DNA of 9,515 bases from an uncultured archaeon (GTDB taxonomy: Archaea > Iainarchaeota > Iainarchaeia > Iainarchaeales > 0-14-0-20-30-16), in NCBI GenBank assembly GCA_964565125.1, contig CAZMCX010000027.1, positions 1 through 9,515 of the forward strand. The letters are read 5' to 3'. The position numbers were made by a program, and so were the translations under genes. How positions within the stretch are numbered: position 1 is the first letter of the stretch; the number at the start of each line of letters is the position of its first letter. The notes beneath the pieces were generated by a model. That model was given only the letters and a program-made list of their open reading frames with translations. It did no database searches and had not been told where the DNA came from. Positions 1,316 through 9,359 of the stretch are shown here, one piece after another.

Positions 1316-3091
1316 ATGACTATGGATGTACTAGAAAAAGTCAATTTTGAAAAAGACAAAGAGGTATACTGGCACACAACATCACACATATTAGCTGCTG
1401 CAGTAAAGAGAATGTACCCAACCACAACCATAGCTATAGGTCCAGCAATAGAAAATGGATTTTATTATGATTTTGATAATCTAAAAATAACTGACGAAGA
1501 TTTGCAGAAAATAGAAAAAGAAATGCAAAAAATAATTTCAGAAAAGCTTCCAATGAAAAAAGAGGTTGTTTCCAAAAAAAAAGCATTAGAAATATTTAGA
1601 AAAGAACCATACAAAGCAGAGCTAATTAACGACTTACCTACTGGAGAAGAAATATCATTTTATCATTTAGGCAAAGAGTTTACAGACCTTTGTAGAGGCC
1701 CGCATTTAGCACATACTGGAATGGTTGGAGAAGTAAAACTTCTAAGTATTGCAGGAGCATATTGGAGAGGAGACGAAAAAAACAAAATGTTAACAAGAAT
1801 CTACGGAATAAGTTTCCCAGATAGAAAACAACTAAGGGTATACTTAGAATTATTAGAAGAAGTAAAGAGAAGAGACCACAGAAAAATAGGAAAAAAACTA
1901 GATTTCTTTGTGTTCTCTGAATTAGTTGGCCCTGGTTTACCATTATGGACTCCAACAGGAAATATTTTCAGAACTGAAATAATTAATTTTTCAAGAGAAC
2001 TACAAAGCACAATTGGATATCAGGAAGTTCACACACCACAAATTACAAGAGCAGAATTATTTAAGATTTCTGGGCACTATGATAAATACAAAGATAGTAT
2101 GTTCAAAGTAATTTCAAATTACACAAAAGAGGAATATTTTTTAAAGCCAATGAACTGCCCAAATCACATACAAATCTATGCTTCTTTGCCAAGAAGCTAC
2201 AGGGATCTACCTCTAAGATATGCAGATTTTGCAATGCTTTATAGAGATGAAAAACCAGGTGAGCTTTCAGGCCTAGCAAGAGTAAGAGCATTCTCTCAAG
2301 ATGATGGACACTGCTTCTGTACTCCCGAACAGATGAAAGACGAATTCCTGAATGTTTTGAAATGTGTCAACGCTGCTTTGAAAGTCTACGGATTAGAATA
2401 TTATGTAAGGCTTTCATTAAGGGATGAAAATGCAAAAGAAAAATATTTAGGAAATGACGAGATCTGGAACAAAGCACAAAAAGCACTAAAAGAATTATTA
2501 AAATCAGAAAAAATCTCTTTTGTTGAAGCTCTAGGGGAAGCAGCATTCTACGGCCCAAAAATGGATGTAATGGCAAAAGATGCTTTAAACAGAGAATGGC
2601 AAATCTCAACAATCCAATTAGACCTAAACTTGCCTGAAAGATTTGAACTTAAATACACTGACAAAGATAACACTGAAAAAAGGCCAATAATGATCCACAG
2701 AGCATTAATCGGAAGCCCTGAAAGATTTGGTGCTATTCTTATAGAGCACTTCGCAGGAAAGTTCCCTCTTTGGCTAAACCCAAGACAAATTCTAGTTGTT
2801 CCTGTTGCAGAGAACTTCAACAAATATGCACAAGAAGTTTGTGATTCTCTAAAAGCTTATGGCTTACGGACAGATATTGATCTTAGAGAAATAACAATGA
2901 ATAAAAAGATCAGGGACGGAGAAATACTTTACTATAACTACATTTTAGTTGTTGGAGAAAAAGAATCAACTTCCAAGAGCGTAAATGTGAGAATCAGAGA
3001 TACAAAAGCACAGAAAACTCTAATTACACAAAACTTTAAAGAAAAAGCATTAGTAGAATACAAGAAGAGAGAACTAAAGAGTTCTCTTTAA
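1316..3091 (+). CDS. thrS: Threonyl-tRNA synthetase, bacterial-type (N2 editing domain, class II core and anticodon-binding domain), lacking the N-terminal TGS domain; likely true start at 1322
   Basis: The 591-aa ORF is colinear by eye with E. coli ThrRS from about residue 60 onward. Editing-site motifs are HTTSHILAAAV (HxxxH) and DLCRGPH. AGAYWRGD and RDHRKIGK are also present. Zinc and catalytic motifs are KPMNCPNHIQIY, FSQDDGHCFC and IMIHRALIGSPERF. The C-terminal part (FPLWLNPRQILVVPV...) looks like the anticodon-binding domain. Confidence 0.95.
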   Translation: MTMDVLEKVNFEKDKEVYWHTTSHILAAAVKRMYPTTTIAIGPAIENGFYYDFDNLKITDEDLQKIEKEMQKIISEKLPMKKEVVSKKKALEIFRKEPYKAELINDLPTGEEISFYHLGKEFTDLCRGPHLAHTGMVGEVKLLSIAGAYWRGDEKNKMLTRIYGISFPDRKQLRVYLELLEEVKRRDHRKIGKKLDFFVFSELVGPGLPLWTPTGNIFRTEIINFSRELQSTIGYQEVHTPQITRAELFKISGHYDKYKDSMFKVISNYTKEEYFLKPMNCPNHIQIYASLPRSYRDLPLRYADFAMLYRDEKPGELSGLARVRAFSQDDGHCFCTPEQMKDEFLNVLKCVNAALKVYGLEYYVRLSLRDENAKEKYLGNDEIWNKAQKALKELLKSEKISFVEALGEAAFYGPKMDVMAKDALNREWQISTIQLDLNLPERFELKYTDKDNTEKRPIMIHRALIGSPERFGAILIEHFAGKFPLWLNPRQILVVPVAENFNKYAQEVCDSLKAYGLRTDIDLREITMNKKIRDGEILYYNYILVVGEKESTSKSVNVRIRDTKAQKTLITQNFKEKALVEYKKRELKSSL

Positions 3092-3099
3092 TTTTTTTT
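3066..3099 (+). terminator. Hairpin plus T8 run at the thrS stop codon (intrinsic-terminator-like)
   Basis: A perfect 8-bp stem pairs AGAGAACT (3068-3075) with AGTTCTCT (3080-3087) around the loop AAAG. It is followed by TTAA and then T8 at 3092-3099. The stop codon TAA is at 3089-3091. Confidence 0.5.
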
Positions 3100-3298
3100 A
3101 TTCTTTTTCAGGTTCTAATTTTTTGTTAATAAAATACAATACAACATACAAAATTATTGCAGAAACTATTGGAACAATAATATAATACCAAATAGGTAAG
3201 AACTCTTTGCCTTTCCAAAGGTTATCAACTAATATCTGCACATAAGATCCAATTAATGCCAAATAACAGGCCAAATACACAACTTCGTTTTTATTCAT
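3098..3298 (-). CDS. Small (66 aa) two-TM membrane protein, unknown function
   Basis: The ORF has two clear hydrophobic helices (VVYLACYLALIGSYVQILV and IWYYIIVPIVSAIILYVVLYFI). AGGTG (reverse complement of 3307-3311) lies 8 nt upstream of the ATG. I recognise no family. Confidence 0.5.
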   Translation of the reverse strand: MNKNEVVYLACYLALIGSYVQILVDNLWKGKEFLPIWYYIIVPIVSAIILYVVLYFINKKLEPEKE

Positions 3299-3311
3299 AT
3301 TTTATACACCT

Positions 3312-3346
3312 AAAACAAATAATACAAACTGATATTTATTTGTTTT
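3312..3346. repeat. Perfect 11-bp inverted repeat with a 13-nt spacer, between the upstream terminator and the SD of the 66-aa ORF
   Basis: AAAACAAATAA (3312-3322) is the exact reverse complement of TTATTTGTTTT (3336-3346). Confidence 0.6.
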
Positions 3347-3370
3347 GTTACCTATACAAAGAAAAAATAT

Positions 3371-3398
3371 AAAAAAAGAGAGTAGACATCTCTACTCT
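3371..3398 (-). terminator. Hairpin plus T7 run ending the 311-aa/73-aa transcription unit
   Basis: The minus strand reads AGAGTAGA-GATG-TCTACTCT, an 8-bp perfect stem at 3379-3398, followed by C and T7 (A7 on the plus strand, 3371-3377). The 5' arm contains the TAG stop of the 73-aa ORF. Confidence 0.55.
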
Positions 3399-3613
3399 AT
3401 AAGCTCACCCAATTCTACTGTGTCATCTTGATCATTGGCGATAAATATATCATCCACCATAGACAAAGCTTCGGCCTCATTGTAATCCGCCTGTCCGCTT
3501 AGAGTATCTGATGTATCTTTTGTTGTGCTATCTTTACTTAAAGTAACTCCAAGCACCACTCCAATTACTACTAACACTATTAGCACTAATAATATTGCAA
3601 GCCAAGCTTTCAT
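3392..3613 (-). CDS. Small (73 aa) signal-anchor protein with an acidic C-terminal ectodomain, unknown function
   Basis: The N-terminal helix is strongly hydrophobic (AWLAILLVLIVLVVIGVVLGVTL). The tail is D/E-rich. Its ATG (3611-3613) overlaps the TGA (3610-3612) of the upstream gene as ATGA, which suggests translational coupling. A terminator hairpin sits at its stop codon. Confidence 0.6.
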   Translation of the reverse strand: MKAWLAILLVLIVLVVIGVVLGVTLSKDSTTKDTSDTLSGQADYNEAEALSMVDDIFIANDQDDTVELGELIE

Positions 3614-4545
3614 TCGGAATCACCTTCTACATTCAAATCTACTGAAACAGCTACTTCTGCATTTGAATCTTCGCTGTTGCCATCTTCTTCTCCAAACCAG
3701 TCATCTAATTTATCTTCTACTTTATTTTTTATTTTATCTTTTATTTTACCTTTAAGTTCTTGCTTTTTTTCTGAAATTTTCTTTTTTAATTCTTGTTTTA
3801 TTTCTTCTTTATTTTCTTCTATTTTCTGCTTTATTTCTGCTTTCTTTTCAGCAACCTTTGCTTTTACTTCTTTCTTTACTTTTCCATTGTAAGTTTGGGT
3901 TTTAACTTTTACTTCTTTTATTTTCCACATTAATTCTTTCTTTAATTCTTTTTGAAGACCGCCAAACATCTTTGCAATCTCGCTTCTCATTTCACCATAT
4001 GTTGCAGTACCCGCAGCAATTTTATCTAAAAGGCTTTGATTTTTTACTTCTAAATCTTCAAACAACTTTGCAGCCACTTCATAATTATATTTATTTTTGT
4101 TTTCTTTTATTTCTGCATCCAATTTTTCTACTGATGCTTTTTCCATTGCTTTATATTCATCCTTAATTGTGTTCTTTTCATCTGAGTTCAAATCTTTTGC
4201 GTAAGTCTTAAACTCTTGTGCTAAATCCATTGCTTTTTCTTTGTATGCAAGGAAGTCTTTAACCAAAAATTCTGGCTCTTTTCCAGTTACATCATACCCT
4301 GATACTTCCTCTTTTAGAGCTTTATATTCTGCAATTACTGTTGTTGCATTTTCATCCAAATATGGCAAAGCTAATTCACCAATCATAATATGTTTTTCCA
4401 TTGCTTTTTCCAGTTGTAACATTCTTACTTCTGCACCATTTGTATTTGTAAAATTAGTATATATTTTATCTTCATTAAATGCAAATGATGGTATTGCTAA
4501 TGCTACTACAAAAACCATTGCCAATAACAAATTCTTATAGTTCAT
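3610..4545 (-). CDS. Secreted 311-aa Lys/Glu-rich helical protein with an acidic C-terminal tail, unknown function
   Basis: The N-terminus is signal-peptide-like (MNYKNLLLAMVFVVALAIPSFAF). The body is long and helical, and its C-terminal third is low-complexity K/E (KKEVKAKVAEKKAEIKQKIEENKEEIKQELKKKISEKKQELKGKIKDKIKNKVEDK). It ends in an acidic tail (DDWFGEEDGNSEDSNAE...EGDSE). SD-like GGGGGTG (reverse complement of 4553-4559) lies 7 nt upstream of the ATG. Confidence 0.8.
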   Translation of the reverse strand: MNYKNLLLAMVFVVALAIPSFAFNEDKIYTNFTNTNGAEVRMLQLEKAMEKHIMIGELALPYLDENATTVIAEYKALKEEVSGYDVTGKEPEFLVKDFLAYKEKAMDLAQEFKTYAKDLNSDEKNTIKDEYKAMEKASVEKLDAEIKENKNKYNYEVAAKLFEDLEVKNQSLLDKIAAGTATYGEMRSEIAKMFGGLQKELKKELMWKIKEVKVKTQTYNGKVKKEVKAKVAEKKAEIKQKIEENKEEIKQELKKKISEKKQELKGKIKDKIKNKVEDKLDDWFGEEDGNSEDSNAEVAVSVDLNVEGDSE

Positions 4546-4573
4546 AATCTAACACCCCCATGATATACCTGCT

Positions 4574-4625
4574 GCGGAACTAAATATATACCTTTTCCGG
4601 AATTATCCGGAACAAGGCGGAACTA
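4574..4625. promoter_or_regulatory. Array of four same-orientation SCGGAAY motifs bracketing the TATA-like element (candidate operator)
   Basis: CGGAA begins at 4575, 4598, 4608 and 4618, so the last three are exactly 10 bp apart. The outermost copies are identical 9-mers, GCGGAACTA, at 4574-4582 and 4617-4625. One middle copy is embedded in the palindrome TTCCGGAA (4595-4602). Confidence 0.5.
4581..4598 (-). promoter_or_regulatory. Archaeal-type BRE/TATA-like promoter element for the 311-aa gene
   Basis: The minus strand reads GGAAAAGG-TATATATTTA, a purine-rich BRE-like stretch followed by a TATA-like stretch. Its 3' end is 35 nt upstream of the ATG at 4545. That spacing would place a transcription start just upstream of the GGGGGTG SD. 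Confidence 0.45.
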
Positions 4626-4662
4626 GAGGGACTTATAGGCCTAAGACAGCATTAGTTAGGTT

Positions 4663-4704
4663 ACAAAGAGGCAATACATAAAGGCAAATTAAACAAAGGC
4701 AAAA
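4663..4704. repeat. Three direct repeats AAAG(A)GGCAA(A/T) spaced 13-15 bp apart
   Basis: The copies are ACAAAGAGGCAAT (4663-4675), TAAAGGCAAAT (4679-4689) and ACAAAGGCAAAA (4693-4704). GGCAA starts at 4670, 4683 and 4698. Confidence 0.5.
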
Positions 4705-4732
4705 GGTCACAGGTTTATTTTACCCTACTTAT

Positions 4733-5437
4733 CTAGTCTAATAGAACAATAACATTAGACAACCCTTTACTTATTTTCTTAATAAGCCCTTTTTTTTCTA
4801 AACTTAAAAGGTTCCGTGATAATGAGGATTTAGGCAAGTTAAGTTCTTGCAGGATTTTATTCTGAGTTATTTGGCCTTTATTTTTCTTTACTAGATCCAA
4901 GATTTGTTTTTCCCTATCTGTTAAAAAAACCTCTTGCTTTACTTCTTTTTGCACAGACTTAGAAAAATATTTCTTATATCCAATATAACCCACGATGGAC
5001 AAAATAACTAATGCTCCAACAAGATATGCCCACCAATATGATTTCAATAAGGGATTTAAAAAAGAGTATTGCAATTTCAGGTTTAATTTCGAGTTCTCTC
5101 CAAATCCATTAATTATTATTTTATCCTCTTGTTTTATTTTCTGGAAACCAGAGATGTTTAGATAATTTATTTCAGTATTTTTTGGCATCCTTAATTCAAA
5201 AACATAGGACGAAAATATTTCATTAGAATCAAAATTAAAAACCCAAAGCCCATTATTTTTTGAGGTCAAATTTGAATTAAGCCCACTTTGTAAATCGGGG
5301 TAATCAGAATATCCACTTATCAAAACGTCTCCATTAGTTTGTACATCAAACACAACATCAGCATAATAAGAGAAAGAAATTCCCGCCAATAACAAAACAA
5401 ACAATGCTAATAGCCCAGTTTTATTCATAAAAATCAT
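4733..5437 (-). CDS. Membrane-tethered transcriptional regulator: signal/TM helix, ~110-aa ectodomain, TM helix, C-terminal winged helix-turn-helix
   Basis: The N-terminus has a hydrophobic segment (GLLALFVLLLAGISFSYYA). The middle domain looks beta-rich. A second TM helix, WWAYLVGALVILSIVGYIGY, covers residues 134-153. The cytoplasmic tail is LTDREKQILDLVKKNKGQITQNKILQELNLPKSSLSRNLLSLEKKGLIKKISKG, which looks MarR/TrmB-like wHTH. This architecture recalls the archaeal membrane-associated regulators I remember as COG2512. The start is either ATG 5437, which overlaps the upstream TGA as ATGA, or ATG 5428. Confidence 0.75.
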   Translation of the reverse strand: MIFMNKTGLLALFVLLLAGISFSYYADVVFDVQTNGDVLISGYSDYPDLQSGLNSNLTSKNNGLWVFNFDSNEIFSSYVFELRMPKNTEINYLNISGFQKIKQEDKIIINGFGENSKLNLKLQYSFLNPLLKSYWWAYLVGALVILSIVGYIGYKKYFSKSVQKEVKQEVFLTDREKQILDLVKKNKGQITQNKILQELNLPKSSLSRNLLSLEKKGLIKKISKGLSNVIVLLD

Positions 5438-6573
5438 TTTTGTTTTTCTAATATAGAATCTATTTCTTGCTCTAAAGTTATAAACTTATCATAAATAGAT
5501 TCATACCCTTTCCAACTGTTCTGATAAAGATAATAGTCATTATCTGTTATTACTTGTTTTATGTAGGATACACTTTCAGGCAGATATTCCCCATTTACAT
5601 AATATTCCACATCAAAAGTTGTGGGACCATATTTCATTCTACCCAAATATTGACCGGTTTGTGGTTCAACTAGCTCTGCCAAATCTAATTTGTTCAGATC
5701 TGACAAGTAATTTATTTTTTCTTTGGAAAACGCAATAACACAATGTCCCCCAAAAACATCTGCTTTGTTTGGATCTTTTAATACCCCGCATACAATATTA
5801 GGATAAATATACCCAACTTCAAGATTATGTTTTTTTGCGTTTGCATAATACCAAGAATTTGAATTATCTAAAAAGTAGTTCCCAGAATCAGAAATTACAA
5901 ATGCCTCAATACTTATTTCTTTATCAGAACATTTTTCAAGCAGATAATTTATTTCTGCTTTAAATAAAAGGGAAAAGTCTTCACAATCACCACCTTTGTT
6001 CTCCAAAAATTCATTAATAGAAATAAACTTGTCTGTTTTTCCTAAAGTTGTATCATCTTTGTATTCCAAGTTCATAAATTGTTCGTTCACTAAATTAAGG
6101 CAAGCTTCGGCAATATAACAAGAACCTGATTTTTCAGAATAACATTTAGAATCTAGCTTAGATTTTATTGATTTACTTTTTAAGGTTGCATTTTCTTTAA
6201 ACCAATCCAAAGAACTTTGCACCTCGATCTTGTAGCCATTTAATTCTTCTTTTGCGGAGTAAAGCTTAGAAGTTAGTTCCGCAGAGATATCTAGAGCTTT
6301 GTTGTATTCTAGGTTCAGGCCTTTATATTCTTCTACTAATTCATAGTACTTTGTTTGCAGTTCAGCATATTGTTTAGAAAGTTCTAAGTATTGCCCAGAA
6401 AGTAGGTTATAATCATCTAAAAGAGAACCATACTTAAAATTCAATAATTCATAATCACTAGTTAGCTTGTCATAATCAGATGATTTAACAAGATATAAAG
6501 CCACAACTAAGGCAATTACCAATATAGCAATAGAAAACAGAACAAAAATTATTACTTCAAGATATTTTTTCAT
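5434..6573 (-). CDS. Membrane-anchored extracellular transglutaminase-like / papain-fold cysteine enzyme with an N-terminal Tyr/Leu heptad coiled coil
   Basis: The N-terminal TM anchor is VIIFVLFSIAILVIALVVALYLV. Nine consecutive heptads follow, with Tyr at residues 34, 41, 48, 55, 62, 69, 76, 83 and 90. KGGDCEDFSLLF contains Cys197 (codon 5983-5985). FGGHCVIAF contains His277 (codon 5743-5745). LVEPQTG contains Glu303. This Cys..His..acid order and context matches the GDCEDY / H / D-P-T pattern I recall for transglutaminase-like cysteine proteinases (BTLCP / Transglut_core). Confidence 0.8.
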   Translation of the reverse strand: MKKYLEVIIFVLFSIAILVIALVVALYLVKSSDYDKLTSDYELLNFKYGSLLDDYNLLSGQYLELSKQYAELQTKYYELVEEYKGLNLEYNKALDISAELTSKLYSAKEELNGYKIEVQSSLDWFKENATLKSKSIKSKLDSKCYSEKSGSCYIAEACLNLVNEQFMNLEYKDDTTLGKTDKFISINEFLENKGGDCEDFSLLFKAEINYLLEKCSDKEISIEAFVISDSGNYFLDNSNSWYYANAKKHNLEVGYIYPNIVCGVLKDPNKADVFGGHCVIAFSKEKINYLSDLNKLDLAELVEPQTGQYLGRMKYGPTTFDVEYYVNGEYLPESVSYIKQVITDNDYYLYQNSWKGYESIYDKFITLEQEIDSILEKQK

Positions 6574-6591
6574 AATATACTTTGGTCGGCG

Positions 6592-6606
6592 AAATATTTA
6601 AATTTT
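6592..6606 (-). promoter_or_regulatory. TATA-like element upstream of the 379-aa gene; possibly a leaderless transcript
   Basis: The minus strand reads AAAATTTAAATATTT, centred about 26 nt upstream of the ATG at 6573. No SD-like motif occurs in the intervening CGCCGACCAAAGTATATT. Confidence 0.3.
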
Positions 6607-6644
6607 AGCACTTTTGTGTTTTTTCGCAGTTTTTGTCAAAATAA

Positions 6645-7835
6645 TCATTTTTTAAAAGCAAGTAACCTTTTTGTTTCTTCAATATTAGTTTTTATTTTTT
6701 CTGCAAACTCTTTTGTTTTAGATTGTGTTTTTAAATACAAAGAAAACAGATGTTGCATCTGCTTTGAAAGGTATTTTAAGAATTCTTTCCTCATCTCTTC
6801 TATTGGTTTTTTTGACAAGATAACAATTCCAAATCCGACGATAAGATATAACCAAAAAGAAAATAATCTATCGATAATTACAACAGACAAAGCCAAAGTG
6901 CTGTTTATTCCTAAGATCGACGCAAGATAAACAAAGGATAGTTCATATGCACCCAAACCGCCTGGGAGCATACTTACATTACCTATTATTTCACACAAAG
7001 ACCATAATCCAAGAACTATAAAGAAATTTACTTCAACCCCAAACATCAAAAATACAAAGTAGATTCTTAGTGTACAGATAAATATTTTTAAAACAGATAA
7101 AAAAAGACTAAAAAATATTGTTTTAAAAGACAACATTTTCAAGTTTTTAAGTTCTTTGTAAAATAATGAAAGAATATTTTTTAAAAAATTAAACGCTATA
7201 GAATCAAAAAGTCTAATTTTTATATTAAATACTTTTATAAAATAATAAACTATTATTATTGAAAATATAAACAACAAAATCGCAAATACAATTAATACGA
7301 TTCTATCCATTACCGACGGGAATGGTAAAAGAGCTGAAGAAATCAGGCCAATAGTTAATACAGTCACAACATCAAAGATGTTTTCCATTGCTATAGACAA
7401 AATCACTTGTGAATACTGAATTTTGTAATAGTATTTTAGAATAATTATTCTAAATGCCTCTCCTAATGGTTTAGGTGGAATTCCTAAAGTTACCGCCAAA
7501 CCACAAAGATAATAATACATCTGTTTTAAAGAATACTTTTTTCCATTGTATAGTGAATATCTCAAAGACAATACAAAAAGTTGAACCGCCGACAATATAA
7601 AAAATAAAAGCAAATAATAAACATTAATTTTCCCGTAATTAAATATTTCAAAAAAGCCAAATTTAGAAAACAAATACAAAAAGATTGCAATTACAACTAA
7701 ATACAAAAAAACATATTTTCTAAAGTTAGTAAGAGAATCTACTTTTTTTGCAAAAGTAAAAAGTTTACTATTGAAGTTTTCAAGTATGTTTTCAAGTGAT
7801 CTTTTTGTTTGGGGCTTGCGAACCATAAAAATCAA
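6645..7835 (-). CDS. UPF0104 / LPG-synthase-TM-like (flippase-like) polytopic membrane protein; likely true start is ATG at 7826
   Basis: There are roughly 8 hydrophobic helices. The near-C-terminal segment NVSMLPGGLGAYELSFVYLASILGINSTLALSVVIIDRLFSFWLYLIVG matches the PGG(L/I)GxxE...R signature I recall for the UPF0104 family (PF03706). The track start at 7835 is a TTG directly abutting the upstream stop. An ATG follows 3 codons later (MVRKPQ...). Confidence 0.8.
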   Translation of the reverse strand: MIFMVRKPQTKRSLENILENFNSKLFTFAKKVDSLTNFRKYVFLYLVVIAIFLYLFSKFGFFEIFNYGKINVYYLLLFFILSAVQLFVLSLRYSLYNGKKYSLKQMYYYLCGLAVTLGIPPKPLGEAFRIIILKYYYKIQYSQVILSIAMENIFDVVTVLTIGLISSALLPFPSVMDRIVLIVFAILLFIFSIIIVYYFIKVFNIKIRLFDSIAFNFLKNILSLFYKELKNLKMLSFKTIFFSLFLSVLKIFICTLRIYFVFLMFGVEVNFFIVLGLWSLCEIIGNVSMLPGGLGAYELSFVYLASILGINSTLALSVVIIDRLFSFWLYLIVGFGIVILSKKPIEEMRKEFLKYLSKQMQHLFSLYLKTQSKTKEFAEKIKTNIEETKRLLAFKK

Positions 7836-8930
7836 TTAGAAAAACAAAAACTTCTTTTTAATTCCGCGTTCAATCATTTCAAAAGGATACGGTGTTACAC
7901 CATTGGTTTTTTTCTTATTCAACCTAGCAACAAGTTTGTCTAACTTATGTTCAGATAATGATTCCAAATCATATCTCTTCTTTGCTTTTACATCCAAATT
8001 ATTAAACAAAGAATCAAATAAAAAATTTTGCCTATTAAAATTAAATTTGTCTTTTAAGCCATACTTTGTTTTCTTTATTGTGTTTCTTACTATTTCATAT
8101 CCAATATCAACACTTTTCAAAGATTCAAAGAAGTTCTCTCCAGAAAGGTTATTAAATATTCCACCCGCACTGCCCAATAATAAAGCTTGATCTCCAACTA
8201 ATGTTTTCTTTCCATTATAATTTCCTATTTCTTTGTATTTTATTTCCCCATTAATATCGTAATTATTTTTCAAAACAAAATTATCTATACTGTCTTTAGA
8301 CATTTCAGAAGAAACGAAATACCCGGTTTTACTATCTATTGGACAAACAAACCTGTAAAGGCTCTTACACTCATTAGAAATAAAATAATCTATCACTTTG
8401 GGGTCAAACTTACCTTTTAACTGACAGTAAACCATTTTCTTTTTTGCCAAAGGATAATTGAAAAGTTTATCCCGCACATTTGAATAAAGACCATCACAAC
8501 CAATTATAACATCTGCTTTTCTTAAAGTTCCTTTTCCTTTTTCTTCAAAAAACACATTATTATTAGTTTTATTATAATCAAAAAATCTTGCGGAGTGAAC
8601 TACTTCTTTTCCTTTATGCTGAAGTTTTTTGTAAAGCAAGTATTCAAATGTAGACTTATCATAAATAGAATACATTCCACGTGTCTCTATTTCTGCAATT
8701 TTTCCATAAGGAGAATGGAACCTAACTAAGTCAACGTCATTAATTAAAGCAGAATTACCAATTTTTTTAAGGTCATATTTTTCTAAAAAAGAGTTATTCA
8801 ATACAACATAATCTCCTTGCTCGCCTAAGATCTCCGGTTTTCTATCAAAAATGTGGTAATCCAAAGAGAACTCTGAAAGATAATTAGCTAATCTTAACCC
8901 AACAACATTGGCCCCGATTATGTATATCAT
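7836..8930 (-). CDS. FAD/NAD(P)-binding oxidoreductase, geranylgeranyl-reductase-family-like, with divergent cofactor motifs
   Basis: The N-terminal Rossmann-like segment is IYIIGANVVGLRLANYL...YHIFD, where GxNxxG replaces GxGxxG but the terminal acidic residue is retained. VIIGCDGLYSNVR resembles the GADGxxSxxR motif. LVGDQALLLGSAGGIFNNLSGEN resembles GDAAG...P..GEG. AGGTG (reverse complement of 8937-8941) lies 6 nt upstream of the ATG. Confidence 0.6.
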   Translation of the reverse strand: MIYIIGANVVGLRLANYLSEFSLDYHIFDRKPEILGEQGDYVVLNNSFLEKYDLKKIGNSALINDVDLVRFHSPYGKIAEIETRGMYSIYDKSTFEYLLYKKLQHKGKEVVHSARFFDYNKTNNNVFFEEKGKGTLRKADVIIGCDGLYSNVRDKLFNYPLAKKKMVYCQLKGKFDPKVIDYFISNECKSLYRFVCPIDSKTGYFVSSEMSKDSIDNFVLKNNYDINGEIKYKEIGNYNGKKTLVGDQALLLGSAGGIFNNLSGENFFESLKSVDIGYEIVRNTIKKTKYGLKDKFNFNRQNFLFDSLFNNLDVKAKKRYDLESLSEHKLDKLVARLNKKKTNGVTPYPFEMIERGIKKKFLFF

Positions 8931-9215: not shown

Positions 9216-9359
9216 TGCCAAGGGGGAGACTTGAACTCCCGGCCTCCAGATTTCTCTCTGAAATCTGGTTTGTCTAATCATCGCTCGTAAAACAAGTTCA
9301 TAATTCATAACCACAAATAGTTATGAGTCTGGCGCTCCAACCAACTGAGCTACCTTGGC
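9216..9359 (-). tRNA. Elongator-type tRNA with anticodon CAU (Met, or Ile2 if C34 is modified), interrupted by a 70-nt intron at 37/38; no encoded CCA
   Basis: Hand-folded on the minus strand. The acceptor stem pairs GCCAAGG with CCTTGGC, followed by discriminator A. The D arm is GCTC-AGTTGGTTG-GAGC. The anticodon stem pairs CCAGA with TCTGG, with loop CTCATA|A (CAT at 9323-9325). The variable region is AGGCC. The T arm is GGGAG-TTCAAGT-CTCCC. Exon 1 is 9322-9359, the intron is 9252-9321 and exon 2 is 9216-9251. The boundary is ambiguous by 1 nt because an A flanks both junctions. It lacks the initiator hallmarks (A1:U72, and GGG/CCC in the anticodon stem). Confidence 0.85.
9252..9321 (-). 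other. tRNA intron (70 nt), canonical position, presumably spliced by an archaeal-type endonuclease
   Basis: The sequence is ACTATTTGTGGTTATGAATTATGAACTTGTTTTACGAGCGATGATTAGACAAACCAGATTTCAGAGAGAA. Removing it restores a standard 74-nt cloverleaf. C32-U33-C34 can pair with the GAG near the intron 3' end, flanked by A-rich unpaired bases. This approximates a relaxed bulge-helix-bulge, but I could not draw a perfect 3-4-3 BHB. Confidence 0.7.

Follow-up and report, generated by a model that had tools for sequence, protein, structure and literature searches.

Bitopic one-component regulators of the ToxR/TcpP/CadC kind are bacterial proteins that cross the membrane once, carry a cytoplasmic winged helix-turn-helix (wHTH) domain and an external sensor, and are accompanied by small co-encoded membrane proteins such as ToxS and TcpH; they act at phased direct repeats near the promoter, and their targets lie beside or near the regulator gene. 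Membrane-tethered one-component regulators are already known in bacteria (ToxR and CadC) and in Sulfolobus (ArnR). To our knowledge, few archaeal transcription factors have a defined operator, the known membrane-bound ones are ArnR and ArnR1, and both environmental sensing and the regulation of surface proteins are poorly understood in DPANN and other uncultured archaea. The locus described here lies in a 9,515-nt stretch of contig CAZMCX010000027.1 (hereafter the window; approximately 30% G+C) from an uncultured archaeon of the Iainarchaeota, and it appears to share the traits listed above: a membrane-tethered wHTH protein of 234 amino acids (aa), two exported proteins of 311 and 73 aa encoded downstream of it, and a conserved operator between the first and second genes constitute a three-gene cassette in which the wHTH protein probably controls the 311-aa/73-aa operon. 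A further gene immediately upstream encodes a 379-aa homolog of LapG-type proteases, which, judged by its distribution among genomes, is a separate and lineage-specific neighbor.

The resemblance to ToxR and CadC is functional only. The domain order is reversed in the 234-aa protein, with the sensor at the N-terminus and the wHTH at the C-terminus; its wHTH is of the MarR/DUF7343 type and not of the OmpR/PhoB type, with no match to Trans_reg_C; its ectodomain is unrelated to known families; and the promoter of the cassette is of the archaeal kind, with a B recognition element (BRE) and TATA box. Unlike ToxS or TcpH, the 73-aa protein would be a regulated target and not a co-transcribed partner.

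Among archaeal proteins, ArnR and ArnR1 of Sulfolobus acidocaldarius are described as membrane-anchored HTH regulators of surface-structure genes (PMC13286277), which is the likeness to the 234-aa protein. ArnR differs in its N-terminal HTH, its C-terminal transmembrane (TM) segments, and the lack of a large ectodomain; its sequence kinship with the 234-aa protein is limited to the generic HTH, and it belongs to another phylum and acts on the archaellum. EarA is likewise an archaeal wHTH regulator of a surface-structure promoter, where it binds to an upstream region (PMC13286277), but it is a soluble activator with an unrelated motif and has no site downstream of the TATA box. For the bacterial enzymes related to the 379-aa protein, LapG-type proteases cut within [T/A/P]AAG, and a D-C-E motif binds calcium in LapG and DvhG (PMC13090378). 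In the literature, no paper was found that mentions DUF7343, and none was found on a membrane-tethered wHTH cassette in DPANN archaea or on an archaeal member of the bacterial transglutaminase-like cysteine proteinases (BTLCP). The architecture, the partner proteins, and the operator of the cassette are new.

The regulator family and its gene order

A preliminary description of the window had reported four co-oriented open reading frames (ORFs) on the minus strand, coding for the 379-, 234-, 311-, and 73-aa products, with ATGA overlaps at 5434-5437 and 3610-3613, and had proposed that they form one self-regulated surface module. The four ORFs and both overlaps are present, the first overlap depending on the start codon that is chosen. 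The 234-aa gene (4733-5437, minus strand), which is the first gene of the cassette, has a second in-frame ATG at 5428, where its closest homolog (P0048) begins, and the junction with the 379-aa gene may therefore consist of a stop codon, 5 nt, and a start codon; the two genes are tightly coupled whichever start holds.

Kyte-Doolittle hydropathy gives the 234-aa protein two hydrophobic segments, at residues 1-22 and 134-155. In its AlphaFold2 (AF2) model, a ten-strand beta-sandwich ectodomain (24-126) is followed by a TM helix (135-158), a disordered basic linker of approximately 15 residues, and a wHTH (174-232), residues 1-22 being a signal peptide or a first TM helix. The protein passes two Pfam families, DUF7343 (PF24034; 50.0 bits against a cut-off of 27.6, E 2.6e-13) and MarR_2 (PF12802; 34.8 bits against 27.0, E 1.8e-8), and among 68 aligned family members, 67 match the former and all 68 the latter at E <= 0.001. 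The C-terminal 60 residues superpose on DNA-bound MarR/ArsR structures, which Foldseek retrieved with a probability of 1.0. In contrast to soluble MarR proteins, this wHTH is predicted to be tethered to the membrane; the model holds three helices and a wing only, set directly after the TM segment and lacking the flanking dimerization helices, and the putative binding sites are direct repeats instead of a palindrome. The ectodomain has no family match, and its best Foldseek hit in the Protein Data Bank (PDB) was a subunit of the oligosaccharyltransferase OST (E 1.6e-3) with poor superposition, nothing being significant. The best reading of these predictions is a bitopic one-component regulator with its ectodomain outside and a MarR-type wHTH in the cytoplasm.

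When 1.84 billion cluster representatives were searched exhaustively with HMMER, 293 members of the 234-aa family were returned at E <= 1e-10. Nearly all of the best 150 of these 293 match end to end and are 220-260 aa long, so that the family is defined by the whole architecture, composed of the signal peptide, an ectodomain that starts with YYADV, the TM helix, the basic linker, and the wHTH. The recognition helix P-K-[SA]-S-x-S-R-N is near-invariant in the family alignment (A6). A defense or phage origin was considered and rejected: PADLOC and PHROGs gave the 234-aa protein generic wHTH matches only (Csa3/CasR-type) and gave the other proteins nothing.

The gene order was followed across archaea by a metagenome scan with the 234-aa family alignment, which gave 80 loci; neighbors were tallied in the 76 loci with 234-aa relatives and clustered, and two cluster alignments (the 311 and 73 families) were then used for hidden Markov model (HMM) searches. 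A homolog of the 311 family lies downstream in 44 of the 50 wHTH loci with at least 1.2 kb of downstream DNA, in the clustering as the co-oriented next gene (+1), and the +2 position is taken by a 73-family homolog in 40 of the 46 loci with enough DNA; the gaps between these two genes range from -4 to +38 nt. The same three-gene order is found in loci L004/L005, L086, and L091. The cassette loci span 24-59% GC, and their marker genes, where present, are archaeal (RNase P and intron-bearing tRNAs). Since the 234-311-73 order is what the loci share, the conserved unit is a three-gene cassette. The surface module proposed earlier thus survives in its regulator, its operator, and its two exported proteins, with three genes rather than four, as the 379-aa gene joins the order only in the clade of the window. 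No additional member of the cassette was accepted: NCBIfam searches with 110 flanking proteins revealed local synteny only (E2 acyltransferase-like proteins, PurF, and methyltransferases). As a side observation, an Rfam RT-16 RNA (81.7 bits, above the gathering score) is found in L108 at 1797-1929 on the minus strand of an archaeal contig, approximately 5 kb from the cassette.

The 311-aa gene (3610-4545, minus strand) is the second of the cassette and encodes what is predicted to be a secreted, all-helical protein. Its N-terminal hydrophobic segment (residues 1-19) has a borderline Kyte-Doolittle score; with this proviso, hydropathy supports the earlier claim that all four products are exported or membrane-anchored. 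Across the family, a conserved N-terminal helical domain of approximately 200 aa (GAEVRMLQLEKAM...) is joined to variable tails. The K/E-rich tail of the window's protein (206-280, pI 9.9), followed by an acidic end, is lineage-specific, and the contact once envisaged between this basic region and the acidic ectodomain of the 73-aa protein finds no backing in conservation. Pfam searches with 38 members and a PDB profile search produced only weak, compositional, apolipoprotein-like matches, and a word-indexed search placed the close homologs in five clusters. A Shine-Dalgarno-like GGGGGTG (4553-4559, minus strand) stands 7 nt upstream of the ATG and is kept as GGRGGTG in L004 and L086. The tetrapeptide IAAG occurs at residues 176-179 (window 4015-4026).

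The third gene, for the 73-aa protein (3392-3613, minus strand), is preceded by GGTGA 6 nt upstream of its start. The product has an N-terminal anchor (hydrophobic segment 1-30 by Kyte-Doolittle) and an acidic tail that ends in VELGELIE, and no family match was obtained for it. Throughout the family, an acidic linker leads to a near-invariant C-terminus, [VI]E[IL]GE[MIL][IV], a heptapeptide that looks like a docking peptide. Approximately 15 of 35 members carry a lipobox-like [LVI][AST][GAS]C after the hydrophobic segment (for instance, L097 8881-9072 and L100 2280-2501) and others, including that of the window, do not; the 73-aa protein is therefore apparently lipid-anchored or TM-anchored according to lineage. 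The preliminary description had assigned none of the products to a characterized family, which holds for the 311-aa protein, the 73-aa protein, and the ectodomain of the regulator, but not for the regulator as a whole, nor for the 379-aa protein treated below.

The repeat element between the regulator and the 311-aa gene

The spacer between the 234-aa and 311-aa genes (4546-4732, 187 nt) is repeat-rich, as had been noted. Its conspicuous TTGCCTT repeats are not the conserved ones; the conserved ones are the four TGTTCCG-type repeats at 4575-4623. The putative operator (4573-4626, minus strand) is composed of four direct RTTCCG repeats (4618-4623, 4608-4613, 4598-4603, and 4575-4580), which are spaced 10, 10, and 23 nt from start to start and bracket a BRE/TATA-like box. 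RTTCCG occurs nine times in the window against 2.68 expected, a count reached by 0 of 200 shuffles, and four of the copies are those clustered at 4575-4623. The box itself, GAAAAGGTATATATTTA (4581-4597, minus strand), is located between repeats 3 and 4; an A/T-rich box keeps a constant position between the repeats in all aligned loci and is invariant in the window, L004, and L086, and we infer from the consensus that it is the promoter of the 311-aa/73-aa operon. Directly ahead of the 311-aa start, 85 nt show almost no variation among the same three loci, despite a protein divergence of 16-38%. The distal TTGCCTYT direct repeats D2 and D3 (4662-4703, minus strand) are degenerate in L004, and the stretch that holds them is missing in L086, where the intergenic region is only 83 nt long; by this comparison, they probably lie outside the conserved element.

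The element is a property of the family as a whole. A consensus of TGTtcCGg.tTGTTCCGct.TgTTCCGG..AAaaTa.ATAtGcTGTTtCatCc emerged from 59 of the 70 unique loci. TTCCG reaches 15.6 copies per kb over the first 160 nt past the wHTH stop codon against 0.68 elsewhere, a 23-fold enrichment, and the step from one copy to the next measures 10 nt in 77 cases and 23 nt in 16. Phased pairs number 110 in 592 kb of cassette loci, all of them at the 3' end of the wHTH gene, and 0 in 855 kb of control loci. Self-regulation, by which the module had been characterized, was rejected: none of 61 loci has two or more copies of the motif upstream of the wHTH gene, and none was found upstream of the 379-aa gene of the window.

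On the reading that we prefer, several copies of the tethered wHTH would bind head-to-tail on the TGTTCCG repeats, occupying both the three that adjoin the BRE/TATA box with 10-bp phasing and the fourth, which is placed downstream of the TATA box but ahead of the start site, and would thereby set the transcription of the 311-aa/73-aa operon; a signal received by the ectodomain would relieve repression. The head-to-tail arrangement of several protomers is suggested by direct repeats that are phased on one face of the DNA, as in ToxR-type regulators. As the wHTH is held approximately 15 residues from the membrane, it could reach only membrane-located DNA, and a target beside its own gene fits this constraint. 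Repression is favored by this layout, in which one site is at the edge of the BRE and another follows the TATA box and precedes the start site; activation is possible. The cassette as a whole, with the wHTH protein in control of the operon, is considered probable but well short of certain.

Several observations weigh against this reading. The motif is missing in 5 of 71 loci, and 6 of the 50 loci with at least 1.2 kb of downstream DNA have no recognizable 311-family gene. The repeats start 10-40 nt past the wHTH stop codon and could act in the 3' end of that transcript. Because the recognition helix and the DNA motif are both invariant, no covariation between them can be used. The wHTH is 60 aa long, has none of the MarR dimerization helices, and might be a protein-protein module. 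Finally, the 4-nt overlap of the 379-aa and 234-aa genes is kept in three species, so that some functional link between the protease and the cassette may exist in this clade.

The alternative that survives best concerns the sign of the regulation. The tethered wHTH may be an activator, in which case the three upstream repeats would serve as an upstream activating sequence for the recruitment of the TATA-binding protein (TBP) and transcription factor B (TFB), after the manner of EarA or Ptr2, with the fourth site in a secondary role. Archaeal activators usually bind where three of the four sites are found, upstream of the BRE/TATA box, and many loci have a weak TATA box such as AAATAGATAT, as an activator-dependent promoter would have. 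EarA is described as helping to recruit the transcription machinery to the archaellum promoter, upstream of which it binds (PMC13286277). Against this, the third repeat touches or overlaps the position of the BRE, and the fourth repeat, equally conserved, falls between the TATA box and the expected start, a typical site for an archaeal repressor. Activation is a possible but less likely outcome than control by repression.

Whatever its sign, the cassette offers a large regulator family (the 293 cluster representatives), an operator/promoter layout that is precisely defined and family-wide, a two-gene exported regulon, and a new extracellular domain. With a defined operator and a domain of 70 residues, the binding, its polarity, and the signal can be tested with short synthetic DNA and without cultivation.

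The LapG-like 379-aa protein

The 379-aa gene (5434-6573, minus strand) encodes a protein with a predicted TM anchor, a stalk helix, a LapG/BTLCP-like domain, and a C-terminal helix. Its N-terminal hydrophobic segment spans residues 1-34 (Kyte-Doolittle). In the AF2 model (pLDDT 91.7), the hydrophobic N-terminus runs on as a single helix from residue 2 to residue 127, which would make a stalk of approximately 125 residues, and an alpha/beta domain and then the C-terminal helix come after residue 127. A search of 5.8 billion proteins recovered 46 relatives, of which the named ones are from DPANN archaea. The alignment of 42 family sequences (A1) has G195-D196-C197, D199, G276-H277-C278, E303, and D346 as invariant residues; E198 is conserved in at least 90% of the sequences, and several further cysteines are nearly invariant.

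The kinship with LapG emerged from three kinds of comparison. A PDB profile search with the family matched Legionella LapG (4fgo, E 1.4e-6) across the cysteine motif; with the model, Foldseek ranked LapG (4u65_E, probability 0.96) at the top together with arylamine N-acetyltransferases, which share the Cys-His-Asp fold with LapG; and hhalign aligned the family to bacterial LapG-like ORFs with a probability of 98.1% (E 8.7e-14). This last comparison set (A9) comprises the bacterial ORFs L071, L073, L075, and L078, obtained from a genome scan with a degenerate cysteine motif. In each of these four loci, the LapG-like gene is followed by a gene for a two-TM protein of 636-651 aa, whose size and layout would fit LapD.

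The calcium-site D-C-E motif is kept in the 379-aa protein as D196-C197-E198, and at the level of sequence the catalytic cysteine and acidic calcium ligands of the GDCEDF type that mark LapG/BTLCP proteins are in place. The protein resembles the LapG/BTLCP proteins, DvhG included, in its GGDCEDF motif with a preceding helix, in its matching fold, and in its extracytoplasmic location; as with DvhG, it apparently stays at the membrane instead of being freely soluble. It differs from LapG in being archaeal, in its N-terminal TM segment and stalk helix, in its C-terminal helix, and in a large insertion between Cys and His: the two residues are 80 positions apart in the 379-aa protein and 35 in the bacterial ORFs, and owing to this insertion the profile alignment stops ahead of the His. 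For the rest of the candidate triad, H277 is invariant and placed on a strand, and E303 and D346, both invariant, are the options for the third residue.

The 379-aa protein scores below the family thresholds, at 13.9 bits against 23 for Transglut_core and at 13.5 against 320 for the NCBIfam LapG equivalog, and no LapD/DvhD-like receptor, type I secretion system, or giant adhesin was found in the window or in 61 archaeal loci of the family. With scores so far below the thresholds and no Lap-type partners, it is not a LapG ortholog; it is, by sequence and model, a putative TM-anchored, long-stalked extracellular homolog of the BTLCP proteases. The 61 loci were collected by a scan of one genome per species and belong to Iainarchaeota, Micrarchaeota, Woesearchaeota/Nanoarchaeota, and Aenigmatarchaeota. 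LapG-type ectoproteases, hitherto a theme of bacterial biofilms, would in this way be placed in several DPANN phyla as long-stalked membrane enzymes, and they bear on how episymbionts handle surface or host-contact proteins.

With regard to the cassette, the preliminary description joins all four genes in a single module, where the stalked enzyme would act together with the regulator and the exported proteins; it could, for example, cut one of these as a signal or for envelope remodeling. All four products are indeed extracytoplasmic or membrane proteins, and the junction of the protease and wHTH genes (a 4-nt overlap or a 5-nt gap) persists in three species whose proteins are 62-84% identical. 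The two genes adjoin only in a genus-level clade (L001/L002, L093/L094, L004/L005, and L086), in which L001/L002 and L093/L094 represent the species of the window, L004/L005 stand at 84% identity, and L086 at 68%. Among the wHTH-family metagenome loci, a protease homolog was seen only in L093/L094, and none lies within 7 kb in the other 74. Conversely, of the 61 protease loci, which come from named DPANN genomes, 59 lack a wHTH-family gene in their vicinity; the exceptions are L053, a distant locus with a wHTH-family gene 550 nt downstream of the protease homolog, and L044, and the two genes are adjacent in neither. The 61 protease loci contain no match to the 311 family, and the matches to the 73 family in L030, L050, and L065 are marginal (E 3e-4 to 8e-4) and fall on proteins that are not 73-like.

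Inside the clade, the protease gene abuts the upstream lipid genes in L004, where the spacer is only 3 nt long, so that it continues an operon of geranylgeranyl-reductase-like (GGR-like) and flippase-like genes, and in L086 a radical-SAM gene has been inserted before it. One further trait could speak for the larger module: IAAG is present only in the 311-aa homologs of the three protease-linked species, other members having xNG or xSG at this place, and LapG-type enzymes cut within a similar motif. It comes from a single clade, and its first residue is not T, A, or P, which puts IAAG off the Lap consensus. A link of the protease to the cassette through IAAG is thus a hypothesis, with one clade and an imperfect fit to the consensus behind it, and a module of four genes is judged unlikely. 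The distribution of the two families points instead to a protease that was recruited locally as a separate neighbor, outside the conserved three-gene unit.

A conserved operon around the 379-aa family itself was rejected as well, the immediate neighbors in the 61 DPANN loci being heterogeneous in a Pfam scan: no Pfam family occurs among more than three of approximately 60 neighbors, and the commonest (UDG, VWA/DUF58, class III signal peptide, and CDP-archaeol synthase, CarS) occur at two to three loci each. Lipid-related neighbors were noted on their own account. GGR-like and flippase-like genes accompany the protease gene in the clade of the window, and CarS adjoins it in the distant loci L007 (5216-5740) and L036 (5272-5796); the cases are too few for a lipid link of the family, which was set aside.

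A more speculative scheme, to which we attach a somewhat lower likelihood than to the four-gene module, would combine these components into a surface-signaling circuit. The [VI]EIGEM[IV] peptide of the 73-aa protein would be a tethered ligand for the ectodomain of the regulator or for the 311-aa protein and would feed the state of the surface to transcription, and the LapG-like protease, in its own clade, would cut one component, for instance the 311-aa protein at IAAG. If true, this would provide a DPANN archaeon with a protease-gated sensor of contact or of the envelope.

The least probable explanation, that the TGTTCCG repeats are an RNA-level element of the wHTH transcript's 3' end or the site of an unlinked DNA-binding factor, takes its appeal from their position 10-40 nt after the wHTH stop codon and always on the sense strand, but it accords poorly with an exact 10-nt phasing that equals one helical turn of DNA, with a 23-nt step that encloses the A/T box at a constant position, with a spacer that has no significant fold (z -1.33; 24 of 200 shuffles fold as well) and no Rfam match under permissive settings, by which an RNA element was rejected, and with a repeat element found only beside this one regulator family.

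Flanking features of the window

The closest genome to the window is GCA_028710695.1, a DPANN metagenome-assembled genome named 'Candidatus ainarchaeum sp.', with proteins 76-84% identical to those of the window. On the minus strand, the order of genes is a GGR-like FAD protein (7836-8930), a flippase-like LPG_synthase_TM protein (6645-7835), the 379-, 234-, 311-, and 73-aa proteins, and then a 66-aa ORF with two hydrophobic segments (3098-3298, minus strand); a bacterial-type threonyl-tRNA synthetase (ThrRS) gene on the plus strand is convergent with them. A 71-nt spacer (6574-6644, minus strand) separates the flippase-like gene from the 379-aa gene. It has a AAATTTAAATATTT box approximately 20-33 nt before the ATG and no RTTCCG repeat; this box may be the promoter of a transcript with a short leader or none.

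Downstream of the cassette, the hairpin with a T7 run that had been described at 3371-3398 (minus strand) is present: AGAGTAGA-gatg-TCTACTCT followed by C and T7, with an 8-bp stem and a 4-nt loop, overlapping the TAG stop codon of the 73-aa gene. It is likely the end of the 311-aa/73-aa transcript; terminator-like sites in 3000-7000 number 7 against 1.6 expected from shuffles. In L004 (11329-12162) and L091 (1745-2584), an extra gene of 277-279 aa directly follows the 73-aa gene, and the position of the terminator is therefore peculiar to the genome of the window. This extra gene codes for an apparently cytoplasmic protein with a high content of R and H, which matches no Pfam family. L004 has a further 241-aa gene ahead of ThrRS, and the window has neither, just 93 nt (3299-3391) lying between its 73-aa gene and the 66-aa ORF; either a deletion in the window or insertions in the relatives would account for the difference. 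The 66-aa ORF, whose product has no family match, is kept in L004/L005 (E 7.6e-30) and absent in L091.

A minus-strand open frame (1 to approximately 1275; 425 codons) extends beyond the left edge of the window, and L004 has a 408-aa gene of the CofD family (PF01933) at the matching position. A plus-strand ORF of 147 aa (337-780) is probably an antisense shadow of this frame. Toward the right end, ARAGORN reported zero tRNAs over the window, and Rfam finds a tRNA at 9216-9359 on the minus strand (57.4 bits), in which model positions 1-71 are spread across 144 nt, so that an intron-sized insertion of approximately 70 nt is present; it is a typical intron-bearing archaeal tRNA overlooked by the standard tool. 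Between the convergent ThrRS gene and the 66-aa ORF, a hairpin at 3066-3089 (both strands) with a 10-bp stem and T-runs on each side looks like a bidirectional terminator.

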